This document shows positions 3,087-32,000 of a stretch of 32,000 nucleotides of DNA, piece after piece (position 1 is the stretch's first letter; every line of letters starts with the position of its first letter). Origin of the DNA: Patescibacteria group bacterium (lineage in GTDB: Bacteria > Patescibacteriota > Patescibacteriia > 2-01-FULL-39-33); assembly GCA_041649575.1 (NCBI GenBank), contig JBAZMW010000002.1:1-32000 (forward strand), read 5' to 3'. A program made the position numbers and the translations under genes. The notes beneath the pieces were generated by a model, which was given only the letters and a program-made list of their open reading frames with translations, was not told the origin of the DNA and did no database searches.

Positions 3087-3093
3087 TTATAGA

Positions 3094-3265: not shown

Positions 3266-3332
3266 CTACAATCTGTCAGCTTTACCCAAAAATTTGGCGG
3301 GCTCATTAATAAATAAAAAAAATAAAGGTTCT

Positions 3333-18827: not shown

Positions 18828-18900
18828 CTGTAAACGCCTCCTTTTCCACTTTCTTATGTACAGGACTAAGACCTGCCACATCAGTAGCAGATTATTTATT

Positions 18901-18929
18901 ATAATATGACTTTCCGACGTTCCTGTCAA
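18901..18929 (-). promoter_or_regulatory. Consensus sigma70 promoter of the cassette gene (TTGACA-17-TATTAT on the minus strand)
   Basis: The minus strand reads TTGACA (plus 18924-18929), an exact 17-nt spacer, then TATTAT (plus 18901-18906). Confidence 0.6.
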
Positions 18930-18940
18930 TGACCAGGAAC
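18919..18940. promoter_or_regulatory. Perfect 7-bp-arm inverted repeat overlapping the cassette -35 (GTTCCTG-N8-CAGGAAC)
   Basis: GTTCCTG at 18919-18925 and CAGGAAC at 18934-18940. The 8-nt spacer contains most of the -35 hexamer. Confidence 0.45.
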
Positions 18941-18942
18941 TT

Positions 18943-18971
18943 TTGACTTTTTTGCTGAAATATACGATAAT
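18943..18971 (+). promoter_or_regulatory. Sigma70-like promoter for the long plus-strand glycan operon (TTGACT-17-GATAAT)
   Basis: TTGACT at 18943-18948, a 17-nt spacer, then GATAAT at 18966-18971. It lies about 57 nt upstream of ATG 19028 and back-to-back with the cassette promoter. Confidence 0.45.
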
Positions 18972-19027
18972 AATAGGGATAATCATTGGTTTAGGTAGAT
19001 AAAGAATGCCAAGGTAATTTTTTTAAT

Positions 19028-20170
19028 ATGAGCAAAATTCTCATTTTTTCCCTGGCCTATCATCCTTTTGTCGGCGGGGCTGAAGTGGCTATCAAGGAAA
19101 TCACCGAGCGGCTGGCTGGCGAGTTTGAATTTGAAATGATCACTGCCAATTTGGACGGTCGGCAAAAAGAATTTGAAGAGAATTTTAACGGCCTTAGCAA
19201 GATTTATCGTCTTGGCAAAAGAAAATCAGATAAATATTTTTTTCCTTGGTTGGCCTGCCGCAAAGCCGTTGAGCTGCACCGGCAGAGTAATTATCAGATG
19301 ATTTGGGCGATGATGGCCAACCAGGCCGGCTGGGCCGCTCTGAAATTCAAGAAGAAATTCCCACAAGTTCCATATTTGCTCACTTTGCAGGAAGGGGATA
19401 GCGAATGGGATATCTGGCGGCGGACATTTTTGATTCGGCCTATTTACAAAGCGATCTACAAAAAAGCTGATTATATTCAGGCTATTAGTAATTTTCTAGC
19501 CCAGCGGGCGAAGAATTTGGGAGCTAAGTGTCCGATAGAAGTGGTGCCGAATGGAATAAGTAACGTCATTGCGAGCGAAGCGAAGCAATCCCATATTTTT
19601 AAAAATAAAGATTTAAAGAGAGTTATAACAGTTTCCAGGTTGGTTAAAAAAAATGGCCTGGAGGATTTAGTAAAAGCCATGGAATTAGTTAATAAAGATT
19701 ATGACAAGCCAGTCGTTCTAAAAATAATTGGCGATGGAGAATTAAAATACAAATTAGAAAAAGCAGTTAATTATTCAAAAATAAAAGACAAAATTGCATT
19801 CTTGGGAAAAATAAATAATGAAAAAGTTTATGAATATTTGGCTCAAGCCGATATTTTTGTTCGGCCGTCATTGTCTGAAGGGTTGGGTAACGCTTTTTTA
19901 GAGGCTATGGCTTGTGGCGTGCCGGTCATTGCCACTCCGGTTGGCGGTATTCCCGATTTTTTGAAAGACGGCGAAACTGGCTGGTTTTGCGAGGTAAGAA
20001 ACCCCAAAAGCATTGCCGAAAAAATAAAGTATATTTTTGATGAGGAAAATAAGGAAGAAGTTGACAGGGTGGTCAAAAGTGCCAAAAAGATGGTAGAAGA
20101 AAATTATAATTGGGAAAAAATCAGTTTGGACCTGAAAAAAATTTTTAACCATTTAATAAACCAAGAATGA
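19028..20170 (+). CDS. Glycosyltransferase family 4 (GT-B fold)
   Basis: The N-terminus is SLAYHPFVGGAEVAIKEI. The C-terminus is PSLSEGLGNAFLEAMACGVPVIATPVGGIPDFLKDGETG (E-x7-E region). Confidence 0.85.
   Translation: MSKILIFSLAYHPFVGGAEVAIKEITERLAGEFEFEMITANLDGRQKEFEENFNGLSKIYRLGKRKSDKYFFPWLACRKAVELHRQSNYQMIWAMMANQAGWAALKFKKKFPQVPYLLTLQEGDSEWDIWRRTFLIRPIYKAIYKKADYIQAISNFLAQRAKNLGAKCPIEVVPNGISNVIASEAKQSHIFKNKDLKRVITVSRLVKKNGLEDLVKAMELVNKDYDKPVVLKIIGDGELKYKLEKAVNYSKIKDKIAFLGKINNEKVYEYLAQADIFVRPSLSEGLGNAFLEAMACGVPVIATPVGGIPDFLKDGETGWFCEVRNPKSIAEKIKYIFDEENKEEVDRVVKSAKKMVEENYNWEKISLDLKKIFNHLINQE
19565..19592. repeat. Short palindromic/tandem element GTCATTGCGAGCGAAGCGAAGCAATCCC embedded in-frame (encodes VIASEAKQS)
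   Basis: ATTGC (19568-19572) and GCAAT (19585-19589) are inverted arms around a tandem CGAAG-CGAAG. The element lies in the inter-domain linker of the GT4. I recognise the SEAKQS-type peptide as a recurrent metagenomic repeat-derived sequence, from memory and unverified. Confidence 0.4.
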
Positions 20171-21579
20171 GAAAAGAAGTTTTGCTAATTTGTCCTCATT
20201 CCGCGCTGGAAATTTTTAAGGAATCGAAAATTAGCATCGTTATTCCCCATATCCCGTATGTATCACTGGCCAGTTTGGCTGGCGCTCTCTTGGCTGGCGG
20301 GCACGGCGTTCATATCTTGGATTTAAGTATTTCTAAAAACCCCCTGGTTGATTTGGAACAAAAACTAAAAGTTTATCAGCCGGATTTTGTGGGCGTCACT
20401 TTTACCACCGGTTTGTGCAGCGAGGCGGCCGCTATCGCCAAGAAAGTCAGGGAGCTTTGCGGCCTGGCAAAGTTGATTGCCGGCGGCGCGCACCCGTCGG
20501 TTTTTCCGGCCGAGCCGATTGAAAAATACGGTTTTGATTTTTCGGTTTTTGGCGAAGGCGAGCTTACTTTGTCGGAATTGGTTTCCGGCCGCGATGTTTC
20601 TGCCATAGACGGTCTGGCTTATCGCGGGGCCGACGGCCAGGTTGTCATTAATTCTCCCCGCGCTCTCATTGGCGATTTGGACGATCTGCCCCCTCCGGCC
20701 TATCAGCTTTACAACGCCAAAAATTATCACAGCCCGAAAGTCGCTTCACGCCGGAGCCCGGTGGCCGCCATTGAGACCAGCCGTGGCTGTCCCTACAGCT
20801 GTATTTATTGCAACAAACACATTTTTCAGACAAAATTTCGTGCCAAGTCGCCCCGACGAGTGGTTGACGAGATGGAAATCCTCTTAAACCTTGGCTACAA
20901 GGAAATTCACGTTTGGGACGATTGCTTTTCCGCTGATTTAAATCACGCTAAAGGCGTTTGCGACGAGATTGTCAGGCGCGGCGTCAAAGTCAACTGGAAT
21001 GTCTATAATGGCATCAGGGTTGACCGCGTGGATGAGGAGTTGCTTTGCAAACTTATGGCCGCGGGCTGCTACCGTCTAAGTTTTGGCATTGAATCGGGCG
21101 ACCAGGCGGTTTTGAACTTGTCTCAGAAGGGAATCACTTTAGAACAAATCAAAAACGCTGTTCGTTTGGCCAACCAAGTCGGCATAGAAACCCTTGGATT
21201 TTTTATGGTCGGTTTGCCCGGCGAAACAAAGGAGACCTTTGAAAAGACCGTTGCCTTGGCCAAAGAATTAGATTTGGATTTGCCCAAAATCGCCATTGCC
21301 ACGCCACTGCCTGGTACTAAATTTTTCGATGATTGGCGGGAAAAGGGTTTGATTAAGTCCTATAATTGGCCCGATTACGTATTGCATACCAAAAAAAGAG
21401 TAGCCAGTCATCCCAATATCGGCGATGAAGAAATGTTTAAATATTATAATTTATTTTACCGGCAGCTGTATTTACGCCCGAGTTTTATTGCGAAAAGATT
21501 TTGGCGAGGACTAAGAACCGGAGAGATATTTTTTGATATCTATTATTTTTTGAAGGTTTTTATTGGCTTTAAATGGTAA
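20167..21579 (+). CDS. B12-binding-domain radical SAM enzyme (class B rSAM)
   Basis: The N-terminal Rossmann-like B12 domain shows LLICP...ASLAGALLAGGHGVHILD...VGVTFTT...IAGGAHPS. The rSAM cluster motif is SRGCPYSCIYCN (CxxxCxxC). Its start overlaps the upstream GT4 stop by 4 bp (ATGA). Confidence 0.85.
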   Translation: MRKEVLLICPHSALEIFKESKISIVIPHIPYVSLASLAGALLAGGHGVHILDLSISKNPLVDLEQKLKVYQPDFVGVTFTTGLCSEAAAIAKKVRELCGLAKLIAGGAHPSVFPAEPIEKYGFDFSVFGEGELTLSELVSGRDVSAIDGLAYRGADGQVVINSPRALIGDLDDLPPPAYQLYNAKNYHSPKVASRRSPVAAIETSRGCPYSCIYCNKHIFQTKFRAKSPRRVVDEMEILLNLGYKEIHVWDDCFSADLNHAKGVCDEIVRRGVKVNWNVYNGIRVDRVDEELLCKLMAAGCYRLSFGIESGDQAVLNLSQKGITLEQIKNAVRLANQVGIETLGFFMVGLPGETKETFEKTVALAKELDLDLPKIAIATPLPGTKFFDDWREKGLIKSYNWPDYVLHTKKRVASHPNIGDEEMFKYYNLFYRQLYLRPSFIAKRFWRGLRTGEIFFDIYYFLKVFIGFKW

Positions 21580-21599
21580 AAGTATAAATTCATTCTACC

Positions 21600-23000
21600 G
21601 TGATGTTAAAGTTTTTTAAAAAATATAAAATAGAAATCATCTTATTGGTGGTTTCTCTTTTGGCCCATTTCTTTTTCTTTTTTTTGTTGTTGCACAACTA
21701 CGGCCATAATTTTCCCTACGACACCAATGAAGATGCGGCGGAATTTTTTACTATTAGTAAAAACATTTATTTTCATGGGGCTTTTTCCAGCGAGCCGGAG
21801 CTGATACAATATCCAAACAGTTTGCGTACCCCGCTTTACCCGGCTTATTTGGCTGGCTTCAATATTTTCACAACCAGTCCTTTATTGCCGATAATTCTAC
21901 AAAATATTCTGGCCGCTTTGGCCGTGGTTTTGGTTTATCGCCTGGGTCTGTTGGTAGTAAAAAACAAAACCATCAGCTGGCTGGCCGCTTTGTTGTTTGC
22001 CCTCGACCCGCTTGCTAATTATTGGGCCAATATCACCGAGCCGGATACCTTGCTGGTAGTGGCGACTCTGGTGGTTTTGGTTTCATTTTTCAAGTTTCGC
22101 GACAGCGGCCAGTTAAAATTTCTGGCCCTCACTAGTTTGTTCTTGGGTCTGTCGATTTTAATCAAACCGGTGGCGCTTTATTTCCCCATTTTCTTTGTCC
22201 TGATGATTATCGGGGACGCGTTTTTTAAAAAACAGCTGCCAAAAGGAATCAAATGGTCGGCGATTTTTTTGGCGATTACATTTTTGGTGGTCGCGCCGTG
22301 GCTGGGGCGCAATTATTCAAGGTTCGGCGTTTTCTCTGTTTCGTCTATTTCCGGTTACAATCTCTATAGTTACGCCGCTGTCGTTGGTCCTTACCCGCAA
22401 GAGGTAAAAGATTATTTAGTGGAGGTGAAAGAAAAATACGGCCAGTTTGGCCAGAATCGTAATGGCGAGCGCGATCTGCGGGCGCAAAAAAAATTCAAAG
22501 CATTGGCGGTCAAAATAATTATGGCCAATCCGATCGTTTATGCCAAGGCGCATGTCCTGGGCATGGCCAGATTTTTTTTGGACGACGGTCATAAGGAAAT
22601 TTTTTACAACCGGCACTACAGGGCGATGCTGATTTATAATACGCCCGAGCCGACTGACAAGCCGGATATCACCGGTGAATTTAAAAAAGGCAATTTCGGC
22701 GTCATCTGGACCACGATAAAAACCGCCAATTGTTATACGGTAATCTATTTTATTTCCAAATTAATTTATTTTTTGGCCTATCTCCTGATTCTTTTCGGCT
22801 TGATAACTTCTGGCCGGCGTGACAAAAAAATGTTTGGCGCCTTTTTATTTTTACTGTCGTTGGCCTTTTTCATTGCTTTGGCGGCCGGGCCTTATGGTCC
22901 GTCTGTTCGTTATCGTTTGCCGGTTCTGCCCGGTCTGCTCTTGGTGATGGTCTATGGTTTTATGAGTTTGAAAAAAATCAAGAATCCAACAATAAAATAA
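21600..23000 (+). CDS. GT-C glycosyltransferase, family 39-like polytopic membrane protein
   Basis: About 11 hydrophobic segments are present. The first loop is YDTNEDAAEFFTISKNI...RTPLYPAYLA, an acidic motif plus Pro-Leu typical of the ArnT/PMT_2 family. The start is GTG 21600 or ATG 21603. Confidence 0.65.
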   Translation: MMLKFFKKYKIEIILLVVSLLAHFFFFFLLLHNYGHNFPYDTNEDAAEFFTISKNIYFHGAFSSEPELIQYPNSLRTPLYPAYLAGFNIFTTSPLLPIILQNILAALAVVLVYRLGLLVVKNKTISWLAALLFALDPLANYWANITEPDTLLVVATLVVLVSFFKFRDSGQLKFLALTSLFLGLSILIKPVALYFPIFFVLMIIGDAFFKKQLPKGIKWSAIFLAITFLVVAPWLGRNYSRFGVFSVSSISGYNLYSYAAVVGPYPQEVKDYLVEVKEKYGQFGQNRNGERDLRAQKKFKALAVKIIMANPIVYAKAHVLGMARFFLDDGHKEIFYNRHYRAMLIYNTPEPTDKPDITGEFKKGNFGVIWTTIKTANCYTVIYFISKLIYFLAYLLILFGLITSGRRDKKMFGAFLFLLSLAFFIALAAGPYGPSVRYRLPVLPGLLLVMVYGFMSLKKIKNPTIK

Positions 23001-23030
23001 TCGTCTCTAAACTAAAAATATTTTCCGATT

Positions 23031-24458
23031 ATGTCTGGTCAGGTTGAAGAAAAATTTATTATTTTAGGTGCTGGGCCGGCGGGTCTGGCGGCTGGTTATG
23101 AGTTGGCAAAAAACGGTAAAAAAGTTGTTTTGATCGAAAAAGACGACGGCGTCGGCGGATTAAGCCGGACCAAAAAATATCAGGGTCATTATTTTGATTT
23201 AGGCCCTCATCGTTTTTTCACCAAGAATAATGAAGTGGAATCACTCTGGCGGGCTTTATTGGGCAATGACTTTTTGGAATTGCCGCGTTTGACACGGATT
23301 TACTACAAAAAAAATTTTTATCATTATCCGCTTCAGCCGGTGGACGCTTTGTATAAACTGGGATTAGTCAGGTCGGTCTGGGTGATCGGCAGCCTGCTCA
23401 AGACAAAATTCAAAAACTTATTTTTTAGAAAACCAGAGGCGAGCTTCGAAGATTGGGTGACTAATCGTTTCGGCAGTAAATTATTTTCTATATTTTTTAA
23501 GAGCTATACCGAAAAGTTATGGGGCATCAGCACTCGTGATTTAGGAGCGGATTGGGCAGTCCAGCGGATCAAAAACCTATCATTAATTTCAGCGATTAAA
23601 AATGCCATTTTTGGCGATGAACACGGTAAAGTAAAGTCGCTGATTGAGAGATTTAATTATCCAAAGCGTGGCGCTGGTATGATGTATGAAAAAATGGCCG
23701 AGAATATCAAAAAATTGGGCGGAGAAATTATTTATAATGCTAACGTCAAAAACATTTTACATGACGAAGACAAAGTCAGTGGCGTGATAATCGAGGATCA
23801 GAGCGGTGAGCGCCAAGTCGCCGGTGATTACATCATTTCCAGTTTGGCGCTAAACGACATGATTAGAGCACTGTCTCCCTTGGCTCCGGAAAATGTTTTA
23901 CGCGCGGCCGAAAATTTACGCTTTCGCTCGTTGGTCATTGTCTATTTGGTGGTCGAAGCGTCACAAGTCTTCCCGGATAACTGGGTTTATGTTCATGAGC
24001 CGGATTTAAAGGTTACCCGCGTCCAAGACACGAGCAGTTTTGGCCCATACCTGTCCGAGAATAAAAACCAAACCATGGTTTGCTTGGAGTATGCTTGCTG
24101 GTCTGGTGATGCCCTGTGGAGCCAGTCTGACGATGAGTTGGTGGAAATGGGCAAAAGAGACATCGCTGCCATGGGGCTTTTGGGCGGCTCAAGGATTTTG
24201 GACGGTTTGGTCGGACGCATCCCTTATGCTTATCCGGTTTATGCTTTCAATTACGAAGATAATTTGAAAATAATTTTTGATTATTTAGGCCAGTTTAAAA
24301 ATTTTCAAACCGTCGGCCGGTCTGGCTTATTCCACTACAACAACATGGACCACTCCATTTTGACTGGCATTTTCGCCGCCAGGAATTTCATGGGCTCAAA
24401 CTACGATGTCTACAAAGTCAATGCCGAAGCCGATTATCACGAATGCAAATTACCATAA
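23031..24458 (+). CDS. FAD/NAD(P)-dependent oxidoreductase (amine-oxidase / desaturase-like fold)
   Basis: The N-terminal dinucleotide-binding motif is ILGAGPAGLAAGYELAKNGKKVVLIEKDDGVGG. At 475 aa the length fits the family. Confidence 0.75.
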   Translation: MSGQVEEKFIILGAGPAGLAAGYELAKNGKKVVLIEKDDGVGGLSRTKKYQGHYFDLGPHRFFTKNNEVESLWRALLGNDFLELPRLTRIYYKKNFYHYPLQPVDALYKLGLVRSVWVIGSLLKTKFKNLFFRKPEASFEDWVTNRFGSKLFSIFFKSYTEKLWGISTRDLGADWAVQRIKNLSLISAIKNAIFGDEHGKVKSLIERFNYPKRGAGMMYEKMAENIKKLGGEIIYNANVKNILHDEDKVSGVIIEDQSGERQVAGDYIISSLALNDMIRALSPLAPENVLRAAENLRFRSLVIVYLVVEASQVFPDNWVYVHEPDLKVTRVQDTSSFGPYLSENKNQTMVCLEYACWSGDALWSQSDDELVEMGKRDIAAMGLLGGSRILDGLVGRIPYAYPVYAFNYEDNLKIIFDYLGQFKNFQTVGRSGLFHYNNMDHSILTGIFAARNFMGSNYDVYKVNAEADYHECKLP

Positions 24459-25198
24459 ATATGGATCAAAAAAAAGCTGGTATAAATTTTAAAAAAGGCA
24501 AATTGGTCTCTGGTGTTATTTATCCTTCGTTTTTTCCCATTACCAAAGAAGACCTGGTGCTTAATATTGGTTGCGGCGATGGAGTGCAGGCCGTGGTTTA
24601 TGGCGGTAATTTCAAGGAAATGGTTGGCGTTGATATTAACGAGAAAAGTTTGGCCACAGCCGTGGCAGTGATGGATTATTATGGTATAAAAAATTTCAAA
24701 TCGATCGGTGGTAATGTCGAAAAAATTCCGCTTAACGATCGGTTTGATAAGGCAATAGCCATCGACATTATTGAACACGTTATTCATCCAGAAAAAGTAA
24801 TTGGAGAAATAAGAAGATTGCTTAAGGATAATGGGCGGCTACTGATGACCTTTCCAGCCATGCATGATAAATGGGAGCGTTTCTTCCGTTTGGTGGGTCA
24901 AAAGATTCTGCGGCGCCGGAGCCAGGCCGCCAGCAAAAACGGCTGGAACCCGGATCGGCACCAACATGATTATTCGCTCAAGAAATGGCTGAAATTGCTC
25001 CAGCACGGCGGTTTTAAATTGGTGAAGTCGCGCGCCAGCACCATGTGGCCGCCGCTGCATTATTTGGGTCTGCCAAAATTTTGGTTTTCCAGTAAAATTA
25101 TCAGAACAATTGATGGGTTCTTTTGCCGGTTGCCAATTGTTAAAAATTTCGGTCAAGCATTGGTTTGCGAATTCATAAAAGACAACAAACATGAATAA
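24443..25198 (+). CDS. Class I SAM-dependent methyltransferase
   Basis: Motif I is VLNIGCGDGVQA. Post-I is VGVDIN. Motif II-like is FDKAIAIDIIEHV. The start is ATG 24443 (16-bp overlap with the upstream gene) or ATG 24461 (2 nt after its stop). Confidence 0.8.
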   Translation: MQITINMDQKKAGINFKKGKLVSGVIYPSFFPITKEDLVLNIGCGDGVQAVVYGGNFKEMVGVDINEKSLATAVAVMDYYGIKNFKSIGGNVEKIPLNDRFDKAIAIDIIEHVIHPEKVIGEIRRLLKDNGRLLMTFPAMHDKWERFFRLVGQKILRRRSQAASKNGWNPDRHQHDYSLKKWLKLLQHGGFKLVKSRASTMWPPLHYLGLPKFWFSSKIIRTIDGFFCRLPIVKNFGQALVCEFIKDNKHE

Positions 25199-26351
25199 GT
25201 TGAAAAAACAAAATCAGAGCATTATCATTGCCGCTGATATTTTTCCGCCGGACATCGGCGGCCCGGCAACCTATAGTCAAAAAGTTGCCGCCGAATTAAA
25301 AAACAAAGGCTGGCAAGTCAAATTAATTTGCTATAGTGATAAAAAGATTAAGGATGATCTCGGTTTTCCGGTTTATAGGATTATTCGAGGCAAATTTGCG
25401 CCTTGGCGCTATCTAAAATACTTTTTAAAGTTATGCCAACTGGCTAGAGGCGTTGACATAATTTACGCCATGGGTCCGGTGGCCGCTGGCTGGCCGGCGT
25501 CTTGGGCGGCCAAATTACTAGGCAAGAAGCTTGTTGTAAAGATAGTCGGCGATTATGCCTGGGAGCAGGCCAGAAATTTGAAGTTGACGGATTTGGGCAT
25601 AGATGAGTTTCAGACGAAAGACTGGCATGGCAAAACTGGTCGGTTGAAAAGAATTGAGACCCGTGTTTGTTTCAAGGCCGATAAAGTTATTACCCCGAGT
25701 GAGTATTTGAAAAAAATTGTGAAAGGCTGGAGCGTAGAAGAAAATAAAATTCAAGTGATTTATAATGCTATTGAATTAAAAACCGTTGAGCCGATATTAA
25801 AACAGGAAAATGAAAGGTGGTTGATTTCTGTGGCTCGTTTAGTTCCCTGGAAAGGAATTGATACAATAATTAAATTAATGCCAGAGATAATAAAAGAAAT
25901 ACCAAACTTGAAATTTATAGTTATTGGTGATGGGCCGGAAAAACCAAAACTTCAAGAGATTATCCACTCTTTTGGATTAGAAAACAGCGTCAGATTGATG
26001 GGTTTAATGACTCATGGGGATACTTTAAAATATATTTGCGCCAGTGACTTGTTTATTCTAAATAGCGGCTATGAAGGATTACCTCACGTTTTAATAGAGG
26101 CTTTATCGTGCAACGTGCCTGTTGTCGCTAGTGATGTGGGTGGCGTTTCCGAGGTTATATATTGTAATGAACTTGGGTTAATTTTCAAATATAATAATGA
26201 AAGAGAAATTTTGAAAGTAATTTTAGACTTTTTTAAAACAGGAGCCAAAAGTGATTGGTTATTAAAATCAAAAGAAAGGACTTCTTTCTTTGAACAATTT
26301 TCTTTCCCCAATATGATAAATAAAACCGAAGAATTATTAAAAAATTTATGA
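25191..26351 (+). CDS. Glycosyltransferase family 4 (GT-B fold)
   Basis: The N-terminus is PPDIGGPATYSQKVAAEL. The C-terminus is SGYEGLPHVLIEALSCNVPVVASDVGGVSEVI. It overlaps the upstream gene by 8 bp. Confidence 0.85.
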   Translation: MNKLKKQNQSIIIAADIFPPDIGGPATYSQKVAAELKNKGWQVKLICYSDKKIKDDLGFPVYRIIRGKFAPWRYLKYFLKLCQLARGVDIIYAMGPVAAGWPASWAAKLLGKKLVVKIVGDYAWEQARNLKLTDLGIDEFQTKDWHGKTGRLKRIETRVCFKADKVITPSEYLKKIVKGWSVEENKIQVIYNAIELKTVEPILKQENERWLISVARLVPWKGIDTIIKLMPEIIKEIPNLKFIVIGDGPEKPKLQEIIHSFGLENSVRLMGLMTHGDTLKYICASDLFILNSGYEGLPHVLIEALSCNVPVVASDVGGVSEVIYCNELGLIFKYNNEREILKVILDFFKTGAKSDWLLKSKERTSFFEQFSFPNMINKTEELLKNL

Positions 26352-27463
26352 AAGTTTTGATGATTTCCATTGACAAGGGACTGCTGGGTCGCGGCCAGCT
26401 CGGCGATGTGGTTGAGCGCCATCGTAGATATGGCGAATTTTGTGAGCGTCTGGACATTATCGTCTTGAGTCAGCCCGGTTTTGTAAATTATCAAATTTCC
26501 GACAAGGTCATGGTTTATCCGACTAACTCGAAAAAAAAATGGAAATATTTTTTTGATGCCAAACGGATTGGCCGGGGATTGTTCAGGCAGACCAGTTATG
26601 ATTTAGTGGTGACCCAGGAGCCATTTTTAACCGGTTTAGTCGGTGTTGGTTTAAAAAAGAAATTTAGCAGTAAACTGTTGGTTCATTTTCATGGCGATTT
26701 TGTCGGTCTGCCTTTATTATTTGCCAAATTATTCGTGTTGCCGAAAGCCGATGGAATCAGAGTAATGAGCGAGGGACAAAAAGAAAAGTTGATCAGAGCG
26801 GGGATTAGTGAAAAAAGAATCAGGGTTATTTCCACGCCGGTTGATTTAATGAAGTTTGAAACTTATGGAGAGAAAGCGTCAGAAGAAGAATTGTTGAGGA
26901 ATTTAACCGTATCAGCGAGAGAAATTAAGTTTGTTTTAATGGTCGGCCGTAAAGATCTGGTTAAAGATTTTGATACTTTATTTAAGGCAATGAACTTAGT
27001 TTATGAAAAACATCCAGAGACTGGGTTGTGGCTGGTAGGCAATTACACTAACTATAGCGAGGTCAAACAACGACTAAACTTACCAGCGGATAAAATAATA
27101 TTTACCAGCAGAGTCAGCTCTAATGATTTAGCAGCTTATTATAAAATAGCTTATCTGACTGTTTTATCATCAATATCGGAAAGTTTCGGCAAAGTTTTAA
27201 TCGAGGCTAATGCTTGCGGCAAGCCGGTGGTTTCTACCGCCACAACCGGCGCCAAGGAGATTATTAAAGACGGTGAAAATGGCTTTTTGGTGCCCATTAA
27301 AGATTGCAAAGGGTTGGCTAAAAAAATTATTTATTTATTGGAAAATCCGGAGGTTGCCAAACAAATGGGAGAAAAGGGGAGGACGATGGTCAAAGAAAAA
27401 TTTAGCGACAACACCGGTAAAATCATTCAATTTTGGAATAATATAATTAATAATAAACTATGA
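26348..27463 (+). CDS. Glycosyltransferase family 4 (GT-B fold)
   Basis: The C-terminus is SISESFGKVLIEANACGKPVVSTATTGAKEIIKDGENGFLV. There are 4-bp ATGA overlaps at both ends. Confidence 0.85.
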   Translation: MKVLMISIDKGLLGRGQLGDVVERHRRYGEFCERLDIIVLSQPGFVNYQISDKVMVYPTNSKKKWKYFFDAKRIGRGLFRQTSYDLVVTQEPFLTGLVGVGLKKKFSSKLLVHFHGDFVGLPLLFAKLFVLPKADGIRVMSEGQKEKLIRAGISEKRIRVISTPVDLMKFETYGEKASEEELLRNLTVSAREIKFVLMVGRKDLVKDFDTLFKAMNLVYEKHPETGLWLVGNYTNYSEVKQRLNLPADKIIFTSRVSSNDLAAYYKIAYLTVLSSISESFGKVLIEANACGKPVVSTATTGAKEIIKDGENGFLVPIKDCKGLAKKIIYLLENPEVAKQMGEKGRTMVKEKFSDNTGKIIQFWNNIINNKL

Positions 27464-28167
27464 ATAAGGTTTTTGTTTCTATTGCCACTTACAACGAAAA
27501 AGAGAATATTGAGAATTTAGTCAGGCAAATTTTTAGCCAGCAGGTTGACAATCTGTCTATCGTTGTAATTGACGACAATTCGCCCGATGGCACGGCGCAG
27601 ATTATCACTGGTTTAAAACAAGAATTTTCCGGCCTGAATCTGATTAAGCGTTCCGGCAAACTGGGCTATGGCAGCGCTCATATCGCCGGTTTCAAAAAAG
27701 CGATGGCCGAGGGGGCGGATATTATTGTTTCTATGGATGCCGATTTTTCCCATCAGCCAGAAAAAATTCCGGAGCTGGTGGCAGCTATTAGAAGTGGCAA
27801 CGACGTGGCTGTCGGTTCAAGAAAAATTAAAGGCGGAGAGGTTGTCGGCTGGGGCTGGTGGCGAAAATTTTGCAGCACCGGCGCCATGATGGCTTCTCAA
27901 GTTATCTTAGGCATCAAGACGCGCGATCTGACCAGCGGCTTCAGGGCCTATAAAAGAGAGGTTTTTGACCGGGTTGATTTGGACGGGATCAAAAGCGACG
28001 GCTATTCCTTTTTGGAAGAATTGATTTATTTGATTGAAAAACAGGGCTTTTCAATCAAAGAGATTCCCATTATTTTTCATGATCGTCGCTTGGGCCATTC
28101 AAAATTATCAAAAAAAGAAATAGTAAAATTTTTTGTTACCATTTTCAGAATTAAATTTGGCAAATGA
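27460..28167 (+). CDS. GT2 polyprenol-phosphate sugar synthase (Dpm1/Ppm1-like, e.g. polyprenol-P-mannose or -glucose synthase)
   Basis: 235 aa and soluble. The signatures are SIATYNEKENI, VIDDNSPDGT and VSMDADFSHQP, typical of Dpm1-type enzymes. The sugar specificity cannot be read from the sequence. Confidence 0.8.
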   Translation: MNKVFVSIATYNEKENIENLVRQIFSQQVDNLSIVVIDDNSPDGTAQIITGLKQEFSGLNLIKRSGKLGYGSAHIAGFKKAMAEGADIIVSMDADFSHQPEKIPELVAAIRSGNDVAVGSRKIKGGEVVGWGWWRKFCSTGAMMASQVILGIKTRDLTSGFRAYKREVFDRVDLDGIKSDGYSFLEELIYLIEKQGFSIKEIPIIFHDRRLGHSKLSKKEIVKFFVTIFRIKFGK

Positions 28168-29225
28168 AACTATTAATGATTACCAGAAAAGTCGATCCCC
28201 ACGACGCCTTAGCCGGCTTTACTTTTAATTGGGTAAAAAAAATCGGGGAGAATCTGGACGAACTCTATGTGATTTCTTGGCAAAAAGGGGACAGGGGAGA
28301 CTTGCCGGCCAAAATCAAAACCATTTTTTTACCTGACAATAAATTGAAAAAGGTGTTGGTTTTAGAAAAAGAGTTATTTAAAATCTTACCAAAAGTTAGT
28401 GGCGTTTTCTGCCACATGAATCCAGAGTATACAATTCTAGCGGCGTTTTTGGCCAAGATTTTTAGAAAAAAAATTGTTAGTTGGTACACGCACAAGACCG
28501 TCAGCTGGAGAAGGAGACTGGTAGAAGTTTTTGCTGACAAAATTTTAACTGCCTCAAAGGAAAGCTTTAGAGACCTTTGGTTTAAGGATAAAGTCGAGGT
28601 GACAGGACACGGAATTGATTTGGATGTTTTTAACAATATTGATTCTTACCATGGTTATGATGGTATTTTTCACATCATCACTGTTGGCCGGATTTCGCCG
28701 ACCAAAAATTATGAGTCAATGATTAAAGCGATGACCGAATTAAAAACTGAACCAGCGAGATTAATAATTGTCGGCGATGCGATTTTACCTTCGCAAATTC
28801 AATACTTAAAATCTTTAAATGAGATGGTAAAAAGGTTAAAGCTTGATTTTACAATCGATTCGAAAAATTATTCAAAAATATCTTTTGCTGGTTGGATTTC
28901 TAATCGTAAAATTCCCAATAGTTTGAAAACAACTGATTTATTTATAAATTTAAGCGGTACTGGCAGCTTAGATAAGGCAGTTTTGGAAGCCATGGCTTGT
29001 GGTTGCTTGGTTTTAACCTCCAATGAAGCGTTTAAAGATATTCTGCCCCCAGAATTAATGGTGGAAAAAAGCAATCCTCAAAAGTTGGCCGAAAAAATAA
29101 AGTGGCTGATGAATTTGCCAGCTGAGAGAAAAGCTGGGCTAAGACAACAATTACGGGACGAGGTTGTCAAAAACCATAACTTGGACGATTTAGTAAAAAA
29201 AATTGTGGCTCAATTTTATGCGTAA
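28164..29225 (+). CDS. GT-B fold glycosyltransferase (GT4-like)
   Basis: The C-terminal domain shows ITVGRISPTKNYESMIKAM...SGTGSLDKAVLEAMACGCLVLTSN. It overlaps the upstream gene by 4 bp. Confidence 0.75.
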   Translation: MKLLMITRKVDPHDALAGFTFNWVKKIGENLDELYVISWQKGDRGDLPAKIKTIFLPDNKLKKVLVLEKELFKILPKVSGVFCHMNPEYTILAAFLAKIFRKKIVSWYTHKTVSWRRRLVEVFADKILTASKESFRDLWFKDKVEVTGHGIDLDVFNNIDSYHGYDGIFHIITVGRISPTKNYESMIKAMTELKTEPARLIIVGDAILPSQIQYLKSLNEMVKRLKLDFTIDSKNYSKISFAGWISNRKIPNSLKTTDLFINLSGTGSLDKAVLEAMACGCLVLTSNEAFKDILPPELMVEKSNPQKLAEKIKWLMNLPAERKAGLRQQLRDEVVKNHNLDDLVKKIVAQFYA

Positions 29226-30717
29226 TAAAATACTACTAATTTACCCAAGGTTTTATAAGATTGATTTTGATGCCAAGAGCTATCCTTTGGGCCTTTTGGC
29301 CATTGGCACGGTTTTGAAGCGGCAGGGTTTTGAAATCAAGTTGATCGATTTTTTAGTGGAAGATAATCCGTTGGAAGTTTTAGAAAAAGAATTAACCGAA
29401 AACGTTTTAGCCGTGGGCCTATCGGTAATGACGCCCCAAATAGCCGATGCCTTGAAAATCAGCCAAAAAATTAAAGATTATAACCGGGCTTTGCCGGTGA
29501 TTTGGGGCGGCATCCACCCTACGCTTTTTCCGGACCAGACTATTGTTCACCCTTTGATTGATTTTTTGATTGTCGGCGAGGGCGAAATTTCTTTTTCCAA
29601 ATTTTTGAGATTTTTGCAAGGCCAGGGCGAACTGGCCGATATTGGCGGCTTGGTTTACAAAAAAGACGGCCAGGTTTTTAAGAATCAAGAAAAAGAGTTG
29701 ATTGATTTAAATGATTTGCCTTTGATGGATTATTCTTTGCTTTCTTCAAAAACTTTGAAGTTCGATTCGATAATTTTTAATACTAGTCGCGGCTGTCCTT
29801 ATCGTTGCACTTTTTGTGTCAATATTTCTCTGCACAACCGAGCTTGGCGGTATCAGAAAGCAGAAAAAGTTTTGGAAGAGCTGGCCTATCTGGTCGATAC
29901 TCTGGGCTATAAAAAATTGAAATTTCAGGAAGATAATTTTTTTGTCAGTCAGGATCGGGTGGAAAAAATTTTGACGGGCATCGAGGAAAGGGGATTAAAA
30001 TTTCAATGGCTGGCTAATTGTCGGGTCAACTATTTTCGAGACGATTATTTAAACGACCAGTTTTTGGAAAAATTGAAGCGATCCGGCTGTTACAAGCTGA
30101 TGTTTGGGGCCGAATCTGGCTCACAGCGGGTTCTCGATTGGCTAAAGAAGGACATCACCGTGGCTCAGATAATCGAGTCTGCCCAGCTGTGCCAAAAGCA
30201 TGGTCTGCGAGCCAATTATTCGTTTATGTGCGCTCTGCCGACCGAGACCAAAAAAGAGAGACTGGAAACCCTAGAGTTGATTGACAGGTTGATGGCGATA
30301 GGCGATTGCATCGAGATTATCTCGCCCCAACCTTATCGGCCTTATCCCGGAGACGAGTTGGCACAGTATTGCCAAAAGTTAGGCTATCAATTTCCGGATA
30401 AACTGGAAGATTGGCCCAAGGTGGTGGCCAAGTCTATGGATAGCAGCTCCAGCAACCTGGAAAATTTTCCCTGGATTAAAAATCCCAATGAGATCCGGCT
30501 ACAGAGAGTTTGTTCTATTATCGCTACCAGCAAAAAAGGAATGAGGGGCTATATCAAAAGATACCCACTGGTTCTCGCTCCATTTATTGCCCTGTTTTAT
30601 TTATTGGAAAAAACCAGATGGAAATTGAAATTTTTTGGCTGGCCTTTAGAGTATTCGATTTTTATTAACTTGTATTGGCAGACGCAAAAATTGAGAAAAA
30701 AATTATTTATCAAATAA
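29218..30717 (+). CDS. B12-binding-domain radical SAM enzyme, paralog of 20167..21579
   Basis: The ORF is open from TTG 29203. ATG 29218 gives MRNKILLIYP... and an 8-bp overlap (ATGCGTAA) with the upstream GT. The B12 domain shows YPLGLLAIGTVLKRQGFEIKLID...WGGIHPT. The rSAM motif is SRGCPYRCTFCVN. Confidence 0.85.
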   Translation: MRNKILLIYPRFYKIDFDAKSYPLGLLAIGTVLKRQGFEIKLIDFLVEDNPLEVLEKELTENVLAVGLSVMTPQIADALKISQKIKDYNRALPVIWGGIHPTLFPDQTIVHPLIDFLIVGEGEISFSKFLRFLQGQGELADIGGLVYKKDGQVFKNQEKELIDLNDLPLMDYSLLSSKTLKFDSIIFNTSRGCPYRCTFCVNISLHNRAWRYQKAEKVLEELAYLVDTLGYKKLKFQEDNFFVSQDRVEKILTGIEERGLKFQWLANCRVNYFRDDYLNDQFLEKLKRSGCYKLMFGAESGSQRVLDWLKKDITVAQIIESAQLCQKHGLRANYSFMCALPTETKKERLETLELIDRLMAIGDCIEIISPQPYRPYPGDELAQYCQKLGYQFPDKLEDWPKVVAKSMDSSSSNLENFPWIKNPNEIRLQRVCSIIATSKKGMRGYIKRYPLVLAPFIALFYLLEKTRWKLKFFGWPLEYSIFINLYWQTQKLRKKLFIK

Positions 30718-30718
30718 G

Positions 30719-31798
30719 ATGAAAATTTGTTATTTTGGCATTTATAATCCCAAGTATAGTCGCAATAGAGTTATTATTAAAGGACTAAAAGAAAATGGCA
30801 TAGAAGTCATAGAGTGCAGCAGCAATTTATCCGGGCTTAGAAAATATTTTGATTTAATAAAAAAACACAAAAAAATTAAAAAAGATTACGACTTAATGAT
30901 TGTTGGCTTTCCCAGCAATCAGGCGGCGTTTCTGGCCAAATTTCTGACTCGAAAACCGGTGATAGCCGATGCTTTCGTGTCTTTTTATGATTCGATGATC
31001 TTTGATCGAAAAAATCATTCCCCTCGCAGTTTACCGGCGCTCTATTATTGGTTTTTAGATTGGTTGCCGGCACGGTTTTCCGATTTAGTTTTATTAGACA
31101 CCCGAGTCCACATTAATTATTTTGTGCGCACCTTCGGCATAAGAGAGGAGAAGTTTGAACGCGTTTTGGTGGGAACTGATGAGAGTGAGATATATTTTGA
31201 CCCGGCCTTAAAGAAAAAACTTGATTATTTTTTGGTTCATTACCATGCTAGCTTTTTACCGCTCCAGGGAACCGAATATATTATTAAAGCGGCCAAAATT
31301 TTGGAAAAAGAAAATATCAGGTTTAATATTATTGGCAGTGGCCCGGAATATAATAAGATTATCAAGTTGGCTCAAAGCCTGGAGACTAATAACACGGAAT
31401 TCATCAAGCCAGTCCCTTATGAGAAATTAAGGCAATATATTTCGGTGGCCGATATTTGTTTAGGGATTTTTGGCCAAACACCTAAGACCAGCCGGGTTAT
31501 ACCCAACAAAATTTATGAAGCGATTGCTTGTGGCAAAGCAGTGATTACCGCTGATGAGCCGGCTATCCATGAAGTGTTTACCGATGGTAGTAATATTGTT
31601 TTGTGTCACTCGGCTGATCCGAAAGATTTGGCAGAAAAAATTTTGTTTCTAAGAGATCACCAAGCGCTAAGACAGAGGATTGCCGATAGTGCCTATGAAT
31701 TTTTTCTATATAAACTAACACCAAGAGTTATAGTGGAGCAACTGATCAAGAGATTGAAAAAAGAATTCTTAAACGATAAAGCCAGAGAGAATGTATAA
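30719..31798 (+). CDS. GT-B fold glycosyltransferase (GT4/WbuB-like)
   Basis: The C-terminal domain shows CLGIFGQTPKTSRVIPNKIYEAIACGKAVITADEPAIHEVF. It starts 1 nt after the upstream stop. Confidence 0.7.
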   Translation: MKICYFGIYNPKYSRNRVIIKGLKENGIEVIECSSNLSGLRKYFDLIKKHKKIKKDYDLMIVGFPSNQAAFLAKFLTRKPVIADAFVSFYDSMIFDRKNHSPRSLPALYYWFLDWLPARFSDLVLLDTRVHINYFVRTFGIREEKFERVLVGTDESEIYFDPALKKKLDYFLVHYHASFLPLQGTEYIIKAAKILEKENIRFNIIGSGPEYNKIIKLAQSLETNNTEFIKPVPYEKLRQYISVADICLGIFGQTPKTSRVIPNKIYEAIACGKAVITADEPAIHEVFTDGSNIVLCHSADPKDLAEKILFLRDHQALRQRIADSAYEFFLYKLTPRVIVEQLIKRLKKEFLNDKARENV

Positions 31799-32000
31799 AA
31801 TCACAAGTCCCCATGATATTTTACTTATTCTGCCACCGAAGCGGTTTAAGGAACACCGTTATTCTTTGGGTTTGATGTATATCTCTGGTTATTTGCGCGA
31901 TCATGGCTATGATAATACTATAATTGAAAGCAAGATTTTTGGCGGTAAAGATTATCAGTACGACCGAGAGAAAGCTAGAGAAGAAATTATTGAAATAGTA
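31791..32000 (+). CDS. Third B12-binding radical SAM paralog, N-terminal 70 codons only (runs off the right edge; absent from the ORF track)
   Basis: My own translation from ATG 31791 gives MYKITSPHDILLILPPKRFKEHRYSLGLMYISGYLRDHGYDNTIIESKIFGGKDYQYDREKAREEIIEIV, with no stop before nt 32000. This has the same ILLI.P...Y.LGL..I...L...G pattern as the other two rSAM N-termini. It overlaps the upstream GT by 8 bp (ATGTATAA). Confidence 0.7.
   Translation, partial: MYKITSPHDILLILPPKRFKEHRYSLGLMYISGYLRDHGYDNTIIESKIFGGKDYQYDREKAREEIIEIV

Follow-up and report, generated by a model that had tools for sequence, protein, structure and literature searches.

There are precedents for radical SAM (rSAM) action after glycosyl transfer. 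One is GenD1/GenK (PMC4340712); others are the calditol synthase Cds and the HpnI/HpnK/HpnJ set, and for both Cds and HpnJ the proposed substrate is a sugar that a glycosyltransferase (GT) has already attached (PMC13459092). A polar lower-axial residue is a mark of the enzymes that do not carry out radical methylation (PMC12931638). Some relatives, such as ArsL and AprD4, have a Rossmann-like domain without cobalamin binding; the N-terminal domain of AprD4 is not cobalamin-binding (PMC12931638).

We analyzed a stretch of 32,000 nucleotides (the window) from a metagenome-assembled genome whose readable sequence amounts to about 42 kb. The source is a member of the Patescibacteria (CPR), the kind of host that the original prediction had supposed. 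From position 19,028 to the end of the window, the plus strand carries the single dense gene run that had been described, with 12 tightly packed genes (11 complete and one cut) rather than 13 (Table 1). This run, 13 kb long, opens an operon that continues past the window on the same contig and has at least 20 genes, among them a fourth rSAM. The operon mixes GT-B, GT-A (Dpm1-like GT2) and GT-C (PMT_2) glycosyltransferases and SAM methyltransferases with at least four class-B-type rSAMs, which are anciently diverged from each other. Judging from sequence, we think it somewhat probable that the operon makes a cell-surface glycan or glycoconjugate, and that its rSAMs serve, in differing modules, as tailoring enzymes on lipid-linked sugars.

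Table 1. Features of the operon and its upstream context within the window
Feature	Position	Strand	Remarks
PMT_2+TPR, context	8097-9881	+	
PMT_2, context	9915-11648	+	
Wzy_C (O-antigen-ligase-like)+TPR, context	11664-13988	+	
GT4, context	16164-17312	-	
Short nucleotide-sugar dehydrogenase-like gene, context	17385-18239	+	
Divergent promoter-like site TTGACA-17-TATTAT	18929-18901	-	Consensus match only
Promoter-like site TTGACT-17-GATAAT	18943-18971	+	Consensus match only; 57 nt 5' of first operon gene
GT_A1, canonical GT4 (GT-B), 380 aa, first operon gene	19028-20170	+	Pfam Glycos_transf_1 147 bits, Glyco_transf_4
rSAM1, B12-domain radical SAM, 470 aa	20167-21579	+	PF02310 56 bits, PF04055 86 bits
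PMT_2-family GT-C membrane glycosyltransferase, 466 aa	21600-23000	+	Pfam PMT_2/PMT
FAD oxidoreductase, amine-oxidase/PRK07208 type, 475 aa	23031-24458	+	Pfam Amino_oxidase 104 bits
Class-I SAM-dependent methyltransferase	24443-25198	+	Pfam Methyltransf_31/23/11
GT4 (GT-B), 386 aa	25191-26351	+	Pfam
GT4 (GT-B), 371 aa	26348-27463	+	Pfam
GT2 (GT-A), Dpm1/ArnC/AglJ-like, 235 aa	27460-28167	+	Pfam Glycos_transf_2 107 bits
GT_A2, divergent GT-B, 353 aa	28164-29225	+	Pfam: C-terminal Glycos_transf_1 signal only
rSAM2, B12-domain radical SAM, 499 aa	29218-30717	+	PF02310 69 bits, PF04055 72 bits
GT_A3, divergent GT-B, WcaI-like, 359 aa	30719-31798	+	Pfam and NCBIfam
rSAM3, 5' end (70 codons), gene cut by window end	31791-32000	+	Full protein 492 aa

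Terminator-like sites within the operon do not exceed shuffle expectation, and we recognized no flippase in its readable part. Two Ser/Thr-rich secreted proteins are encoded upstream, and a Wzy_C gene also lies 5' of GT/rSAM clusters at other loci (L008, L014, L018 and L020). The FAD oxidoreductase matches NCBIfam NF005548 ('hypothetical protein') with 588 bits, above the cut-off of 389, and shows a weak GLF (UDP-galactopyranose mutase) signal. For the methyltransferase, the ATG at 24443 gives 251 aa and the ATG at 24461, used in the public gene call, gives 245 aa. The top NCBIfam matches of GT2 27460, all under cut-off, are dolichyl- and undecaprenyl-phosphate sugar transferases, and the protein is a probable polyprenyl-phosphate sugar synthase.

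The rSAMs are paralogs, as had been claimed: they have the motifs ILLI.P and SRGCPY.C..C in common, at 31-33% pairwise identity. Both PF02310 and PF04055 score above Pfam gathering in rSAM1 and rSAM2; the 70-aa fragment of rSAM3 has no Pfam match by itself, and the complete gene on the same contig (L003, 11073-12551) encodes a B12+rSAM protein. The CxxxCxxC motif is intact and invariant (C208/C212/C215 in rSAM1), and the N-terminal domains align with the corresponding domains of OxsB, TsrM and TokK, which bind cobalamin, and not with the non-binding domain of AprD4. The enzymes are of class-B type, and from the homology of their N-domains to domains that truly bind cobalamin we infer that they bind it too. 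No clade of known function contains them, and none reaches a curated NCBIfam cut-off, every match being far below.

Methylation is one candidate chemistry. We consider it unlikely, but worth weighing, that the rSAMs, at least those of the rSAM1 type, are not methyltransferases and instead rearrange or dehydrate sugars, by contracting a ring into a carbocycle, as has been suggested for HpnJ and Cds, by an OxsB-like contraction, or by an AprD4-like 1,2-diol dehydration yielding deoxy sugars. HpnJ is the best NCBIfam match of rSAM1 and aligns over its full length, but at 197 bits, where the cut-off is 578; AprD4 is the best PDB match of the rSAM1-family profile (131 bits), but the likeness is confined to the rSAM core and the N-domain does not align. 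A polar lower-axial residue would also fit, and in the rSAM1 family a nearly invariant Thr aligns with OxsB N186 at that position, while in the rSAM2 family a hydrophobic Met (Met71 in rSAM2), which aligns with the lower-axial position of TsrM and OxsB, speaks against it; both assignments come from profile alignments with loop-length ambiguity, in which TokK aligns two positions off. The proposed action of HpnJ and Cds on GT-attached sugars (PMC13459092) is consistent with such chemistry, but all scores are far under cut-offs, and hopanoid and aminoglycoside genes are absent. For rSAM1, methylation and an HpnJ-, OxsB- or AprD4-like rearrangement or dehydration are both candidate chemistries.

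The original prediction read the locus as three equivalent, translationally coupled units, in each of which a GT partners the next rSAM, possibly as a complex. The three GT-B to rSAM adjacencies are indeed present with the overlaps described, at 20167 (ATGA, -4), 29218 (ATGCGTAA, -8) and 31791 (ATGTATAA, -8), and this order and these overlaps fit the idea. The GTs concerned, as had been noted, are not obviously paralogous, with 25-30% identity across their C-terminal domains and membership in separate GT clusters. However, overlaps are the norm in this operon, found at 8 of the 11 junctions between 19028 and 32000 (7 with the methyltransferase start at 24461), and all three GT->rSAM junctions would fall among them by chance with a probability of 0.21-0.34. 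The stop/start overlaps reflect general operon compaction and are not particular to these pairs. In a random order of 12 genes, five of them GT-B, three rSAMs would each follow a GT-B with a chance of about 0.05; for the 20-gene operon, the chance that at least three of four do so is about 0.06. The window alone is thus borderline, and the real evidence is in other genomes.

There, only one of the three pairs is maintained. GT 28164 directly precedes rSAM2 in four of four orthologous loci, with an identical GT family and cross-locus best hits in 12 of 12 cases, and a GT2>GT>rSAM trio with GT2 27460 first occurs in three of the four, including L009 and L010. The rSAM2 orthogroup is tight (66-75% identity) and includes one member with a fused SAM methyltransferase. 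GT2, GT 28164 and rSAM2 make up a conserved three-gene module. Elsewhere in the Patescibacteria, a sister clade of rSAMs has an orthologous GT4 of its own upstream in 15 of 17 cases, with cross-locus best hits agreeing in 177 of 210. The pairing of GTs with 'cluster 0' rSAMs is conserved, and GT 25191 is the window GT nearest to those that precede cluster 0 rSAMs in other Patescibacteria.

The other two adjacencies are not conserved. No co-directional GT-B lies directly 5' of an rSAM1-family gene at any of 64 informative metagenome loci, and among the closest rSAM1 orthologues the upstream gene varies, being AmOx, another rSAM or a divergent GT. Orthologues of GT_A1 (49-66% identity) are followed mostly by an FAD oxidoreductase, not an rSAM. 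At four other loci, orthologues of GT 30719 (51-55% identity) always stand in the order rSAM>GT>MT, and the rSAM3 orthologue in L010 has a methyltransferase upstream, not a GT; by comparison with these relatives, the GT(30719)->rSAM3 order is a local arrangement specific to the window. Across 22 Patescibacteria-type loci, GT-B genes are enriched beside rSAMs, but equally on both sides: directly upstream of 26 of 42 rSAMs (15.6 expected from local GT density) and directly downstream of 24 of 42 (15.6 expected), with open reading frames called crudely and neighbor classes assigned by HMMs that were built from proteins of the window itself, and with permutation P values that overstate significance because the loci are phylogenetically related. 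No full-length GT-rSAM fusion occurs among the 120 + 150 listed relatives. Since two of the three adjacencies are not kept in relatives, the idea of equivalent units is not supported; the pairs are non-equivalent, and we hold a scheme of three matched units to be improbable.

The rSAM1 family is large, with more than 2600 homologues spread over CPR, DPANN archaea and further phyla. Its companions in both CPR and DPANN archaea are an FAD oxidoreductase, a Dpm1-like GT2, a methyltransferase and a PMT_2 GT-C, and with these four rSAM1 forms a module that the two groups share. The oxidoreductase directly adjoins the rSAM gene in 18 of 80 loci and is at most three genes away in 31, and PMT_2 genes of the 21600 type are recurrent neighbors. 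Solitary family members also occur amid housekeeping genes, as in Omnitrophota (L006).

Several observations support a lipid-linked stage: the rSAM1-family loci contain both the motif PMT2>GT2>(MT>)rSAM>AmOx and a Wzx-type flippase; fusions to homologues of GT 28164 involve GT2 (P0242-P0245), GtrA and PMT_2 domains, as well as SAM-MT domains; and all three complete rSAMs have basic, aromatic-rich, amphipathic C-terminal tails. The link to sugars is supported by a relative, P0284, that carries an NDP-sugar 4,6-dehydratase/epimerase and a DegT aminotransferase as fusion partners, and by rSAM-methyltransferase fusions, which exist in both orders. The tails, which suggest membrane association, would also suit rSAMs that modify lipid rather than sugar (for instance the polyprenyl carrier, or membrane lipids that are scavenged), like the class-B rSAMs whose substrates are hopanoids or membrane-spanning lipids of archaea and bacteria (reviewed in PMC13459092). 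Matches to TIGR04072 (lipid biosynthesis B12/rSAM), HpnR and HpnJ point the same way, but all are under cut-offs, the conserved neighbors are glycosyltransferases, methyltransferases and nucleotide-sugar enzymes rather than lipid-synthesis genes, and the P0284 partners are NDP-sugar enzymes, so that we give this very little credence. Least probable of all is a protein or peptide substrate (a glycoprotein target or RiPP-like substrate) for rSAMs merely co-operonic with glycosylation genes: by sequence, the nearest relative of rSAM2 with a known structure is MgmA/QCMT (9CCB), a protein glutamine C-methyltransferase, the RiPP enzyme ApyD tops the NCBIfam list for rSAM2 and rSAM3, and PMT_2, Wzy_C and the Ser/Thr-rich secreted proteins upstream fit protein glycosylation, but the scores are far under cut-offs, no small precursor-peptide gene or peptidase/transporter set lies beside the rSAMs, and rSAM clades co-vary with specific GT families.

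In the preferred reading, of rSAMs as tailoring enzymes on lipid-linked sugars, they would perform radical chemistry on sugar residues of a cytoplasmic intermediate, probably polyprenyl-phosphate-linked, which would then be flipped and moved onto its target by enzymes of the PMT_2 or Wzy_C type. In comparison with known enzymes, the AF2 model of rSAM2 (pLDDT 92) matches the class-I B12-rSAM structures TsrM, MgmA/QCMT, OxsB, AprD4, CysS and TokK at TM 0.6-0.75, a comparison in which methylases and the AprD4-type dehydratase are not separable. The hydrophobic Met of rSAM2 lies below the predicted corrin position, and the most plausible role of this enzyme is cobalamin-dependent C-methylation of the sugar handled by GT 28164.

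ORF listing and translation gave a single unbroken run of plus-strand genes from position 19028 to the end of the window, for which the original prediction had counted 13 genes and we count 12. The three junctions at which a GT-B glycosyltransferase (GT) gene runs into a gene for a B12-binding radical SAM enzyme (rSAM) read as predicted (ATGA, ATGCGTAA and ATGTATAA). They had been taken as a sign of translational coupling, an argument that we dropped: 8 of the 11 operon junctions overlap (7 of 11 with the methyltransferase start placed at 24461), and the chance that all three GT->rSAM junctions do so is 0.21-0.34. Because overlap is so common across the operon, it is uninformative about GT/rSAM pairs. 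A promoter-like site lies 57 nt upstream of 19028, accompanied by a divergent promoter-like site for the minus strand, and terminator-like sites within the run show no excess over expectation. No cobalamin riboswitch, other Rfam family or tRNA was found in the window.

The proteins of the window turn up again on an ENA contig of 235 kb (ERZ27247363 k141_2894300) and on a Logan contig of 29 kb. On the Logan contig, past the end of the window, the third rSAM (rSAM3) is a complete B12-binding and rSAM protein of 492 aa. It is followed in order by a GT4, a methyltransferase, a 579-aa polytopic protein without a family, a PMT_2 membrane glycosyltransferase, a membrane-anchored GT2, a methyltransferase, a nitroreductase-family protein and a fourth rSAM (rSAM4). 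All intergenic gaps in this extended operon are 60 nt or less; the unit therefore comprises at least 20 genes, four of which encode class-B-type rSAMs. The gene before rSAM4 encodes a nitroreductase-family flavoprotein, not a GT, and thus one of the four rSAMs follows a non-GT gene. BluB, the synthase of the lower ligand of B12, is the top NCBIfam match of this flavoprotein but reaches only 82 bits against a cut-off of 150, and we rejected that assignment.

Features of the window, of its continuation and of one related locus (L003, a record of the same contig that reads past the window; L009, a surveyed locus)
Feature	Position	Strand	Basis or remark
Tyrosine integrase, ECF sigma factor, DUF5667 protein, 1291-aa ORF without family	33-7169	+	
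Two Ser/Thr/Gly-rich proteins with N-terminal hydrophobic anchors	14154-14795, 14830-16101	+	No Pfam family; directly after Wzy_C+TPR gene
Nucleotide-sugar dehydrogenase-like protein, 284 aa	17385-18239	+	N-terminal and central domains, without C-terminal domain
Candidate 223-aa ORF	18315-18986	-	No Pfam match; 170-aa form from Met54 also without NCBIfam match
GT4	start 19028	+	Pfam
rSAM1, B12-binding + Radical_SAM, 470 aa	start 20167	+	Pfam
PMT_2 (GT-C)	start 21600	+	Pfam
FAD amine-oxidase-type oxidoreductase	start 23031	+	Pfam
SAM methyltransferase	start 24443, or 24461 in public gene call	+	Pfam
Two GT4	starts 25191, 26348	+	Pfam
GT2	start 27460	+	Pfam
GT-B, Glycos_transf_1 signal C-terminal only	start 28164	+	Pfam
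rSAM2, B12-binding + Radical_SAM, 499 aa	start 29218	+	Pfam
Second divergent GT-B	start 30719	+	Pfam
rSAM3, first 70 codons inside window	start 31791	+	Complete protein in L003
Operon beyond window, 8 genes after rSAM3	L003 11073-21080 (from rSAM3), window-equivalent 31791-41798		
Fusion of rSAM2-branch class-B rSAM with class-I SAM methyltransferase	L009 8001-10142		

The rSAMs of the window belong to the Radical SAM superfamily (PF04055: 85.7 bits for rSAM1 and 72.0 bits for rSAM2, gathering threshold 29.5). With PF02310 scores of 56.2 and 69.2 bits, respectively, against a threshold of 32.1, they are class B enzymes of class-I architecture, in which an N-terminal Rossmann-type B12-binding domain precedes the rSAM TIM barrel. 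They had been described as paralogs that share a SAM-cluster motif and a B12-binding domain, and this held: pairwise identity among the four copies is 31-33%, the cysteines of the CxxxCxxC motif (C208/C212/C215) are invariant in the four paralogs and three homologues, and full-length rSAM3 contains SRGCPYSCTFC.

None of the rSAMs could be placed in a clade of known function: every curated NCBIfam cut-off was missed, with scores 2.5- to 6-fold too low for membership of any known family. The top curated models were HpnJ followed by BchE for rSAM1, and ApyD for rSAM2 (146 bits) and rSAM3 (179 bits). For HpnJ (TIGR03471, cut-off 577.6), rSAM1, rSAM2 and rSAM3 scored 197.3, 125.9 and 134.0 bits, and no hpn genes occur within the approximately 42 kb read; for BchE (TIGR02026, cut-off 481) they scored 191.7, 125.3 and 157.4 bits. 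Best scores for MgmA/QCMT (TIGR04014), BzaD (TIGR04385), ApyD (NF050148) and AprD4 (NF033070) were 128.7, 146.1, 178.6 and 111.6 bits against cut-offs of 360, 450, 750 and 500. Many homologues carry the JGI label 'anaerobic magnesium-protoporphyrin IX monomethyl ester cyclase' (BchE) or 'YgiQ'; since the BchE cut-off is missed by a factor of at least 2.5, at least the BchE labels are over-annotations. The AlphaFold model of rSAM2 (pLDDT 92, pTM 0.89, from a 90-sequence alignment) superimposes on TsrM, MgmA/QCMT (9CCB; PMC12931638), OxsB, AprD4, CysS and TokK with TM-scores of 0.6-0.75, similar for all. With TsrM, MgmA, OxsB and AprD4 fitting about equally well, the fold does not tell a methylase from a dehydratase.

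The proposed GT->rSAM pairing was examined in the neighbourhoods of homologues together with 80 genome loci from the rSAM2-family alignment and 80 metagenome loci from the rSAM1-family alignment, with neighbouring genes annotated by HMMs built from the window's own proteins. In 22 Patescibacteria-type loci (318 genes, including 107 GT-B and 42 rSAM), a co-directional GT-B lies directly upstream of the rSAM in 26 of 42 cases and directly downstream in 24 of 42. Shuffling genes within each cluster predicts 15.6 +/- 2.8, giving P values of about 4e-4 (upstream) and 2.5e-3 (downstream) that are optimistic because the loci are related. The alternation can equally well be read as rSAM->GT. The adjacency pattern is real and testable; its function we infer.

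Conservation of the individual pairs was confirmed for GT 28164 and rSAM2 and failed for the other two. Orthologues of rSAM2 (66-75% identity) have the same GT family directly upstream in all four loci, namely the window, L007, L009 and L010, with agreement in 12 of 12 cross-locus best hits, and a Dpm1-like GT2 precedes this GT in three of the four. A sister clade ('cluster 0') of 17 rSAMs, about 40% identical to rSAM2 and without a member in the window, has its own orthologous GT4 upstream in 15 of 17 loci (best hits agree in 177 of 210 comparisons). Its loci are labelled Falkowbacteria, Parcubacteria, Paceibacterota and Gribaldobacteria, among others, and its usual layout is GTB>GTB>rSAM>GTB downstream of a Wzy_C gene. 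For the rSAM1 family, no co-directional GT-B lies directly upstream in any of the 64 informative metagenome loci; the genes upstream of close rSAM1 orthologues are a FAD oxidoreductase (L010), a divergent GT (L004) and an rSAM (L005). Orthologues of GT 30719 occur in the order rSAM, GT, methyltransferase in four of four other loci, and the one other rSAM3 orthologue available (L010, 67% identity) follows a methyltransferase; the sample is small in both cases. The picture of three coupled pairs arises largely from operon compaction and a high density of GTs. The GTs themselves differ: GT 19028 is a canonical GT4 (PF00534, 147 bits, plus Glyco_transf_4), whereas GT 28164 (66 bits) and GT 30719 (85 bits) match PF00534 in the C-terminal domain only and are therefore divergent GT-B proteins.

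Some record labels in this sample deserve comment. The 'MAG TPA_asm' records titled 'uncultured Gammaproteobacteria bacterium' (L010, L015-L017, L021, L052) are Patescibacteria-like in gene content and closest relatives; L010, for example, encodes the same operon with a protein 72% identical to rSAM2, and the taxonomy given in such records seems unreliable. Loci labelled Acidobacteriota/Terriglobia, Bryobacterales and Chloroflexota-type lineages (L038, L053, L054, L057, L061, L062, L085) hold more distant relatives (26-30% identity) as tandem sets of three to five rSAM genes, around which few GTs or none were recognised, a different system.

The rSAM1 family has partners of another kind. Within three genes of its members we found a GT2 in 37 of 80 loci, another rSAM in 34, a FAD oxidoreductase in 31 (directly adjoining in 18), a methyltransferase in 18 and PMT_2 in 12, and the recurring order is PMT_2, GT2, an optional methyltransferase, rSAM and FAD oxidoreductase. 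In L122 and L110, a Wzx-type flippase, a GDP-mannose 4,6-dehydratase and a TylC3-like C-methyltransferase belong to the module as well. Family members at 43-49% identity occur in proteins labelled Woese-, Pace- and Nanoarchaeota, and others in Planctomycetota, Omnitrophota and Fermentibacteria; in one Omnitrophota genome the gene stands alone among housekeeping genes. Both rSAM1- and rSAM2-type subfamilies are common to CPR and DPANN at 38-49% identity, together with PMT_2, GT2 and methyltransferase neighbours (L005 from Woesearchaeota, L031, L040, L051). The shared gene sets suggest that envelope-glycan modules have been exchanged between these small-celled symbionts.

Gene fusions offer a separate view of functional partners. 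No full-length GT-rSAM fusion was found with a concatenated GT 28164 and rSAM2 query or among the long proteins of the 150 best representatives. The only candidate, P0409, was rejected: its rSAM is preceded by a methyltransferase fragment and by no more than half of a Glycos_transf_1 domain, and the gene looks truncated or mis-called. Homologues of GT 28164 are instead fused to GT2, PMT_2, GtrA, SAM-methyltransferase or second GT4 domains, and rSAM2-type proteins to SAM methyltransferases in both orders (P0154 and P0334, rSAM first; P0375, methyltransferase first). A second methyltransferase domain is puzzling on a presumed cobalamin-dependent methylase. P0284 (1189 aa, 32% identity) joins B12-binding and rSAM domains to an SDR NDP-sugar 4,6-dehydratase/epimerase and a DegT/DnrJ/EryC1 aminotransferase, which suggests that at least one branch of the rSAM group acts on nucleotide sugars. 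The fusions tie the GT 28164 type to polyprenyl-phosphate-sugar machinery and the rSAM2 branch to sugar metabolism; they give no support to a GT-rSAM complex.

Two further architectures were seen. P0339 (2331 aa), P0426 (2096 aa) and P0430 (2279 aa) carry four or five consecutive Radical_SAM domains, of which three to four are accompanied by B12 domains and one by a SPASM domain; each polypeptide is in effect an entire rSAM array. Related clusters also contain an SDR epimerase fused to a FAD amine-oxidase-type oxidoreductase and a PMT_2 (GT-C) fused to a GT4 (L004 10026-12362; L009 2485-4953; L004 13205-; P0241). The former is reminiscent of what we take to be the two-step oxidation-reduction epimerisation of a lipid-linked sugar by DprE1/DprE2.

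Profiles of the rSAM families align with the cobalamin binders OxsB, TsrM and TokK across the N-terminal domain, whereas AprD4 aligns with both profiles through the rSAM core only. AprD4 does not bind cobalamin, and having a Rossmann-like domain is not enough, as AprD4 and ArsL illustrate (PMC12931638). Since the N-terminal domain aligns to true binders and not to AprD4, the predicted cofactor site is plausibly real. There is no diagnostic ligand motif to look for, because the cofactor is bound base-off without a protein ligand (PMC12931638). At the lower-axial position, which aligns with TsrM R69 and OxsB N186, the rSAM2 family has Met71 and the rSAM1 family Thr80, both nearly invariant. According to a 2026 review, this residue is hydrophobic in radical methylases and polar in non-methylating enzymes (PMC12931638); we take it as a lead only, and the TokK alignment is two positions off. 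C-methylation would be the most likely chemistry for the rSAM2 type, favoured because of the hydrophobic lower-axial residue, the methyltransferase fusions and neighbours, and the dominance of C-methyltransferases, which are the most represented and most studied group of B12-dependent rSAMs (PMC12931638); for rSAM2 itself we propose it tentatively. For the rSAM1 type, methylation and HpnJ/Cds/OxsB/AprD4-like remodelling are both candidates. In each of the three complete rSAMs the last 45 residues include 8-12 Lys/Arg and 23-26 that are hydrophobic or aromatic, and show amphipathic segments; such tails would fit action at a membrane surface.

Genes upstream of the operon (PMT_2+TPR, PMT_2 and Wzy_C+TPR genes and two Ser/Thr-rich secreted proteins) fit a surface-glycosylation region, and the two Ser/Thr/Gly-rich proteins are candidate glycoprotein substrates. 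The nucleotide-sugar dehydrogenase-like protein scores 120 bits with TIGR03026 (cut-off 190). For the minus-strand ORF, the divergent promoter-like site (18929-18901) suggests a start at the ATG near 18827 (Met54). The 1291-aa ORF has a G+C content of about 0.51, compared with about 0.42 elsewhere, and the stretch 33-7169 may mark where a variable or mobile region borders on the glycan cluster.

What we observe is which genes are present, that the rSAM motifs are intact, that the architecture is of class B and how the arrangement is conserved; beyond this, we lean slightly towards the overall reading that the rSAMs tailor glycan intermediates. The Dpm1-like GT2 and the GT-B enzymes would make cytoplasmic lipid-linked sugar intermediates, the rSAMs would tailor the sugars on them, and the products would be flipped and then used by PMT_2 or Wzy_C-type enzymes. 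A fuller version, which we consider rather doubtful, is that modular class-B rSAM sets act on unactivated carbons of the lipid-linked intermediate, so that CPR and DPANN surface glycans carry C-methylated, deoxygenated or ring-contracted sugars; one set would be wired to a particular GT (GT2->GT->rSAM) and the other to a FAD oxidoreductase, a Dpm1-like GT2 and a GT-C. Such chemistry would be an undescribed branch of glycan biosynthesis, and organisms unable to synthesise cobalamin would have to scavenge it for their envelope.

To our knowledge, almost nothing is known of the envelope glycans of CPR bacteria and DPANN archaea, groups whose members live attached to their host cells. Class-B rSAMs form a huge family (rSAM2 alone matches 53,478 cluster representatives at 50% identity with E<=1e-3), of which we know only a handful with an assigned function; our literature search found nothing on B12-type rSAMs in CPR/Patescibacteria or DPANN glycan clusters. 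Two units lend themselves to testing: GT2 with the GT 28164-type and rSAM2-type genes, which has a sister module in many Patescibacteria, and the rSAM1-type gene with a FAD oxidoreductase, a methyltransferase, a Dpm1-like GT2 and PMT_2, common to both domains. If the rSAMs modify lipid-linked sugars, this would be a new kind of glycan tailoring. It would also bind envelope synthesis in reduced-genome symbionts to an external cofactor. If the rSAMs prove ordinary, widespread 'BchE' and 'YgiQ' mis-annotations are still corrected.

Among known systems, GenD1 and GenK of gentamicin biosynthesis are cobalamin-dependent rSAMs that C-methylate sugar carbons after glycosylation (PMC4340712). They share the N-terminal B12 domain and rSAM core of class B and work in a pathway with GTs and SAM methyltransferases (PMC4340712; PMC12931638). 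Compared by description only, they belong to actinomycete secondary metabolism and act on a soluble pseudotrisaccharide, whereas here several divergent rSAM paralogs sit in a CPR surface-glycan operon with GT-C and Dpm1-like enzymes. In the HpnI/HpnK/HpnJ and GT/Cds calditol routes a GT places a hexose or hexosamine on a lipid and an rSAM is proposed to remodel the sugar, the HpnJ and Cds chemistry itself being only proposed (PMC13459092). HpnJ is the best-scoring curated family for rSAM1, with full-length alignment, but hopanoid and GDGT genes are absent here and the neighbours of rSAM1 are a FAD oxidoreductase, GT2, methyltransferase and PMT_2. TsrM, TokK, OxsB, MgmA/QCMT and CysS resemble rSAM2 in fold, and their profiles align over the B12 domain and rSAM core with the CxxxCxxC motif intact; however, identity is 16-22%, their substrates are Trp, carbapenem, nucleoside and protein Gln, and the window's rSAMs end in a basic, aromatic-rich helical tail unlike their C-terminal domains. 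AprD4, the apramycin 1,2-diol dehydratase, acts on an aminoglycoside sugar and has a similar fold, and both rSAM1 and its family profile find their best PDB sequence match in it, yet it is a non-binder whose N-terminal domain does not align with either family.

In Arn-type logic, a GT2 synthase makes a polyprenyl-phosphate-linked sugar, which is tailored, flipped and transferred by a GT-C. The ArnC/ArnD/ArnT-type route resembles ours in its Dpm1/ArnC-like GT2, tailoring enzymes and PMT_2/ArnT-type GT-C, with a Wzx-type flippase in related loci. The GT2 at 27460 scores 107 bits with PF00535, and its top NCBIfam matches are all Dpm1/ArnC/AglJ-type (for example, 75 bits against 375). Tailoring here would fall to rSAMs, a FAD oxidoreductase and methyltransferases, and all NCBIfam matches are below cut-off. 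GT 19028 also weakly matches TIGR04157 ('glyco_rSAM_CFB', a Bacteroidota GT found beside rSAM genes), but at 88 bits against a cut-off of 400 it is not a member, and we take that system to be a peptide-modification cassette with a non-B12 rSAM. The GenD1/GenK, HpnI/HpnK/HpnJ, GT/Cds and Arn routes are the nearest in logic, and none is a family that contains the window's proteins. The enzyme class and the tailoring role are familiar; the CPR/DPANN surface-glycan operon context, the multiplicity of rSAMs and the two conserved modules are undescribed.
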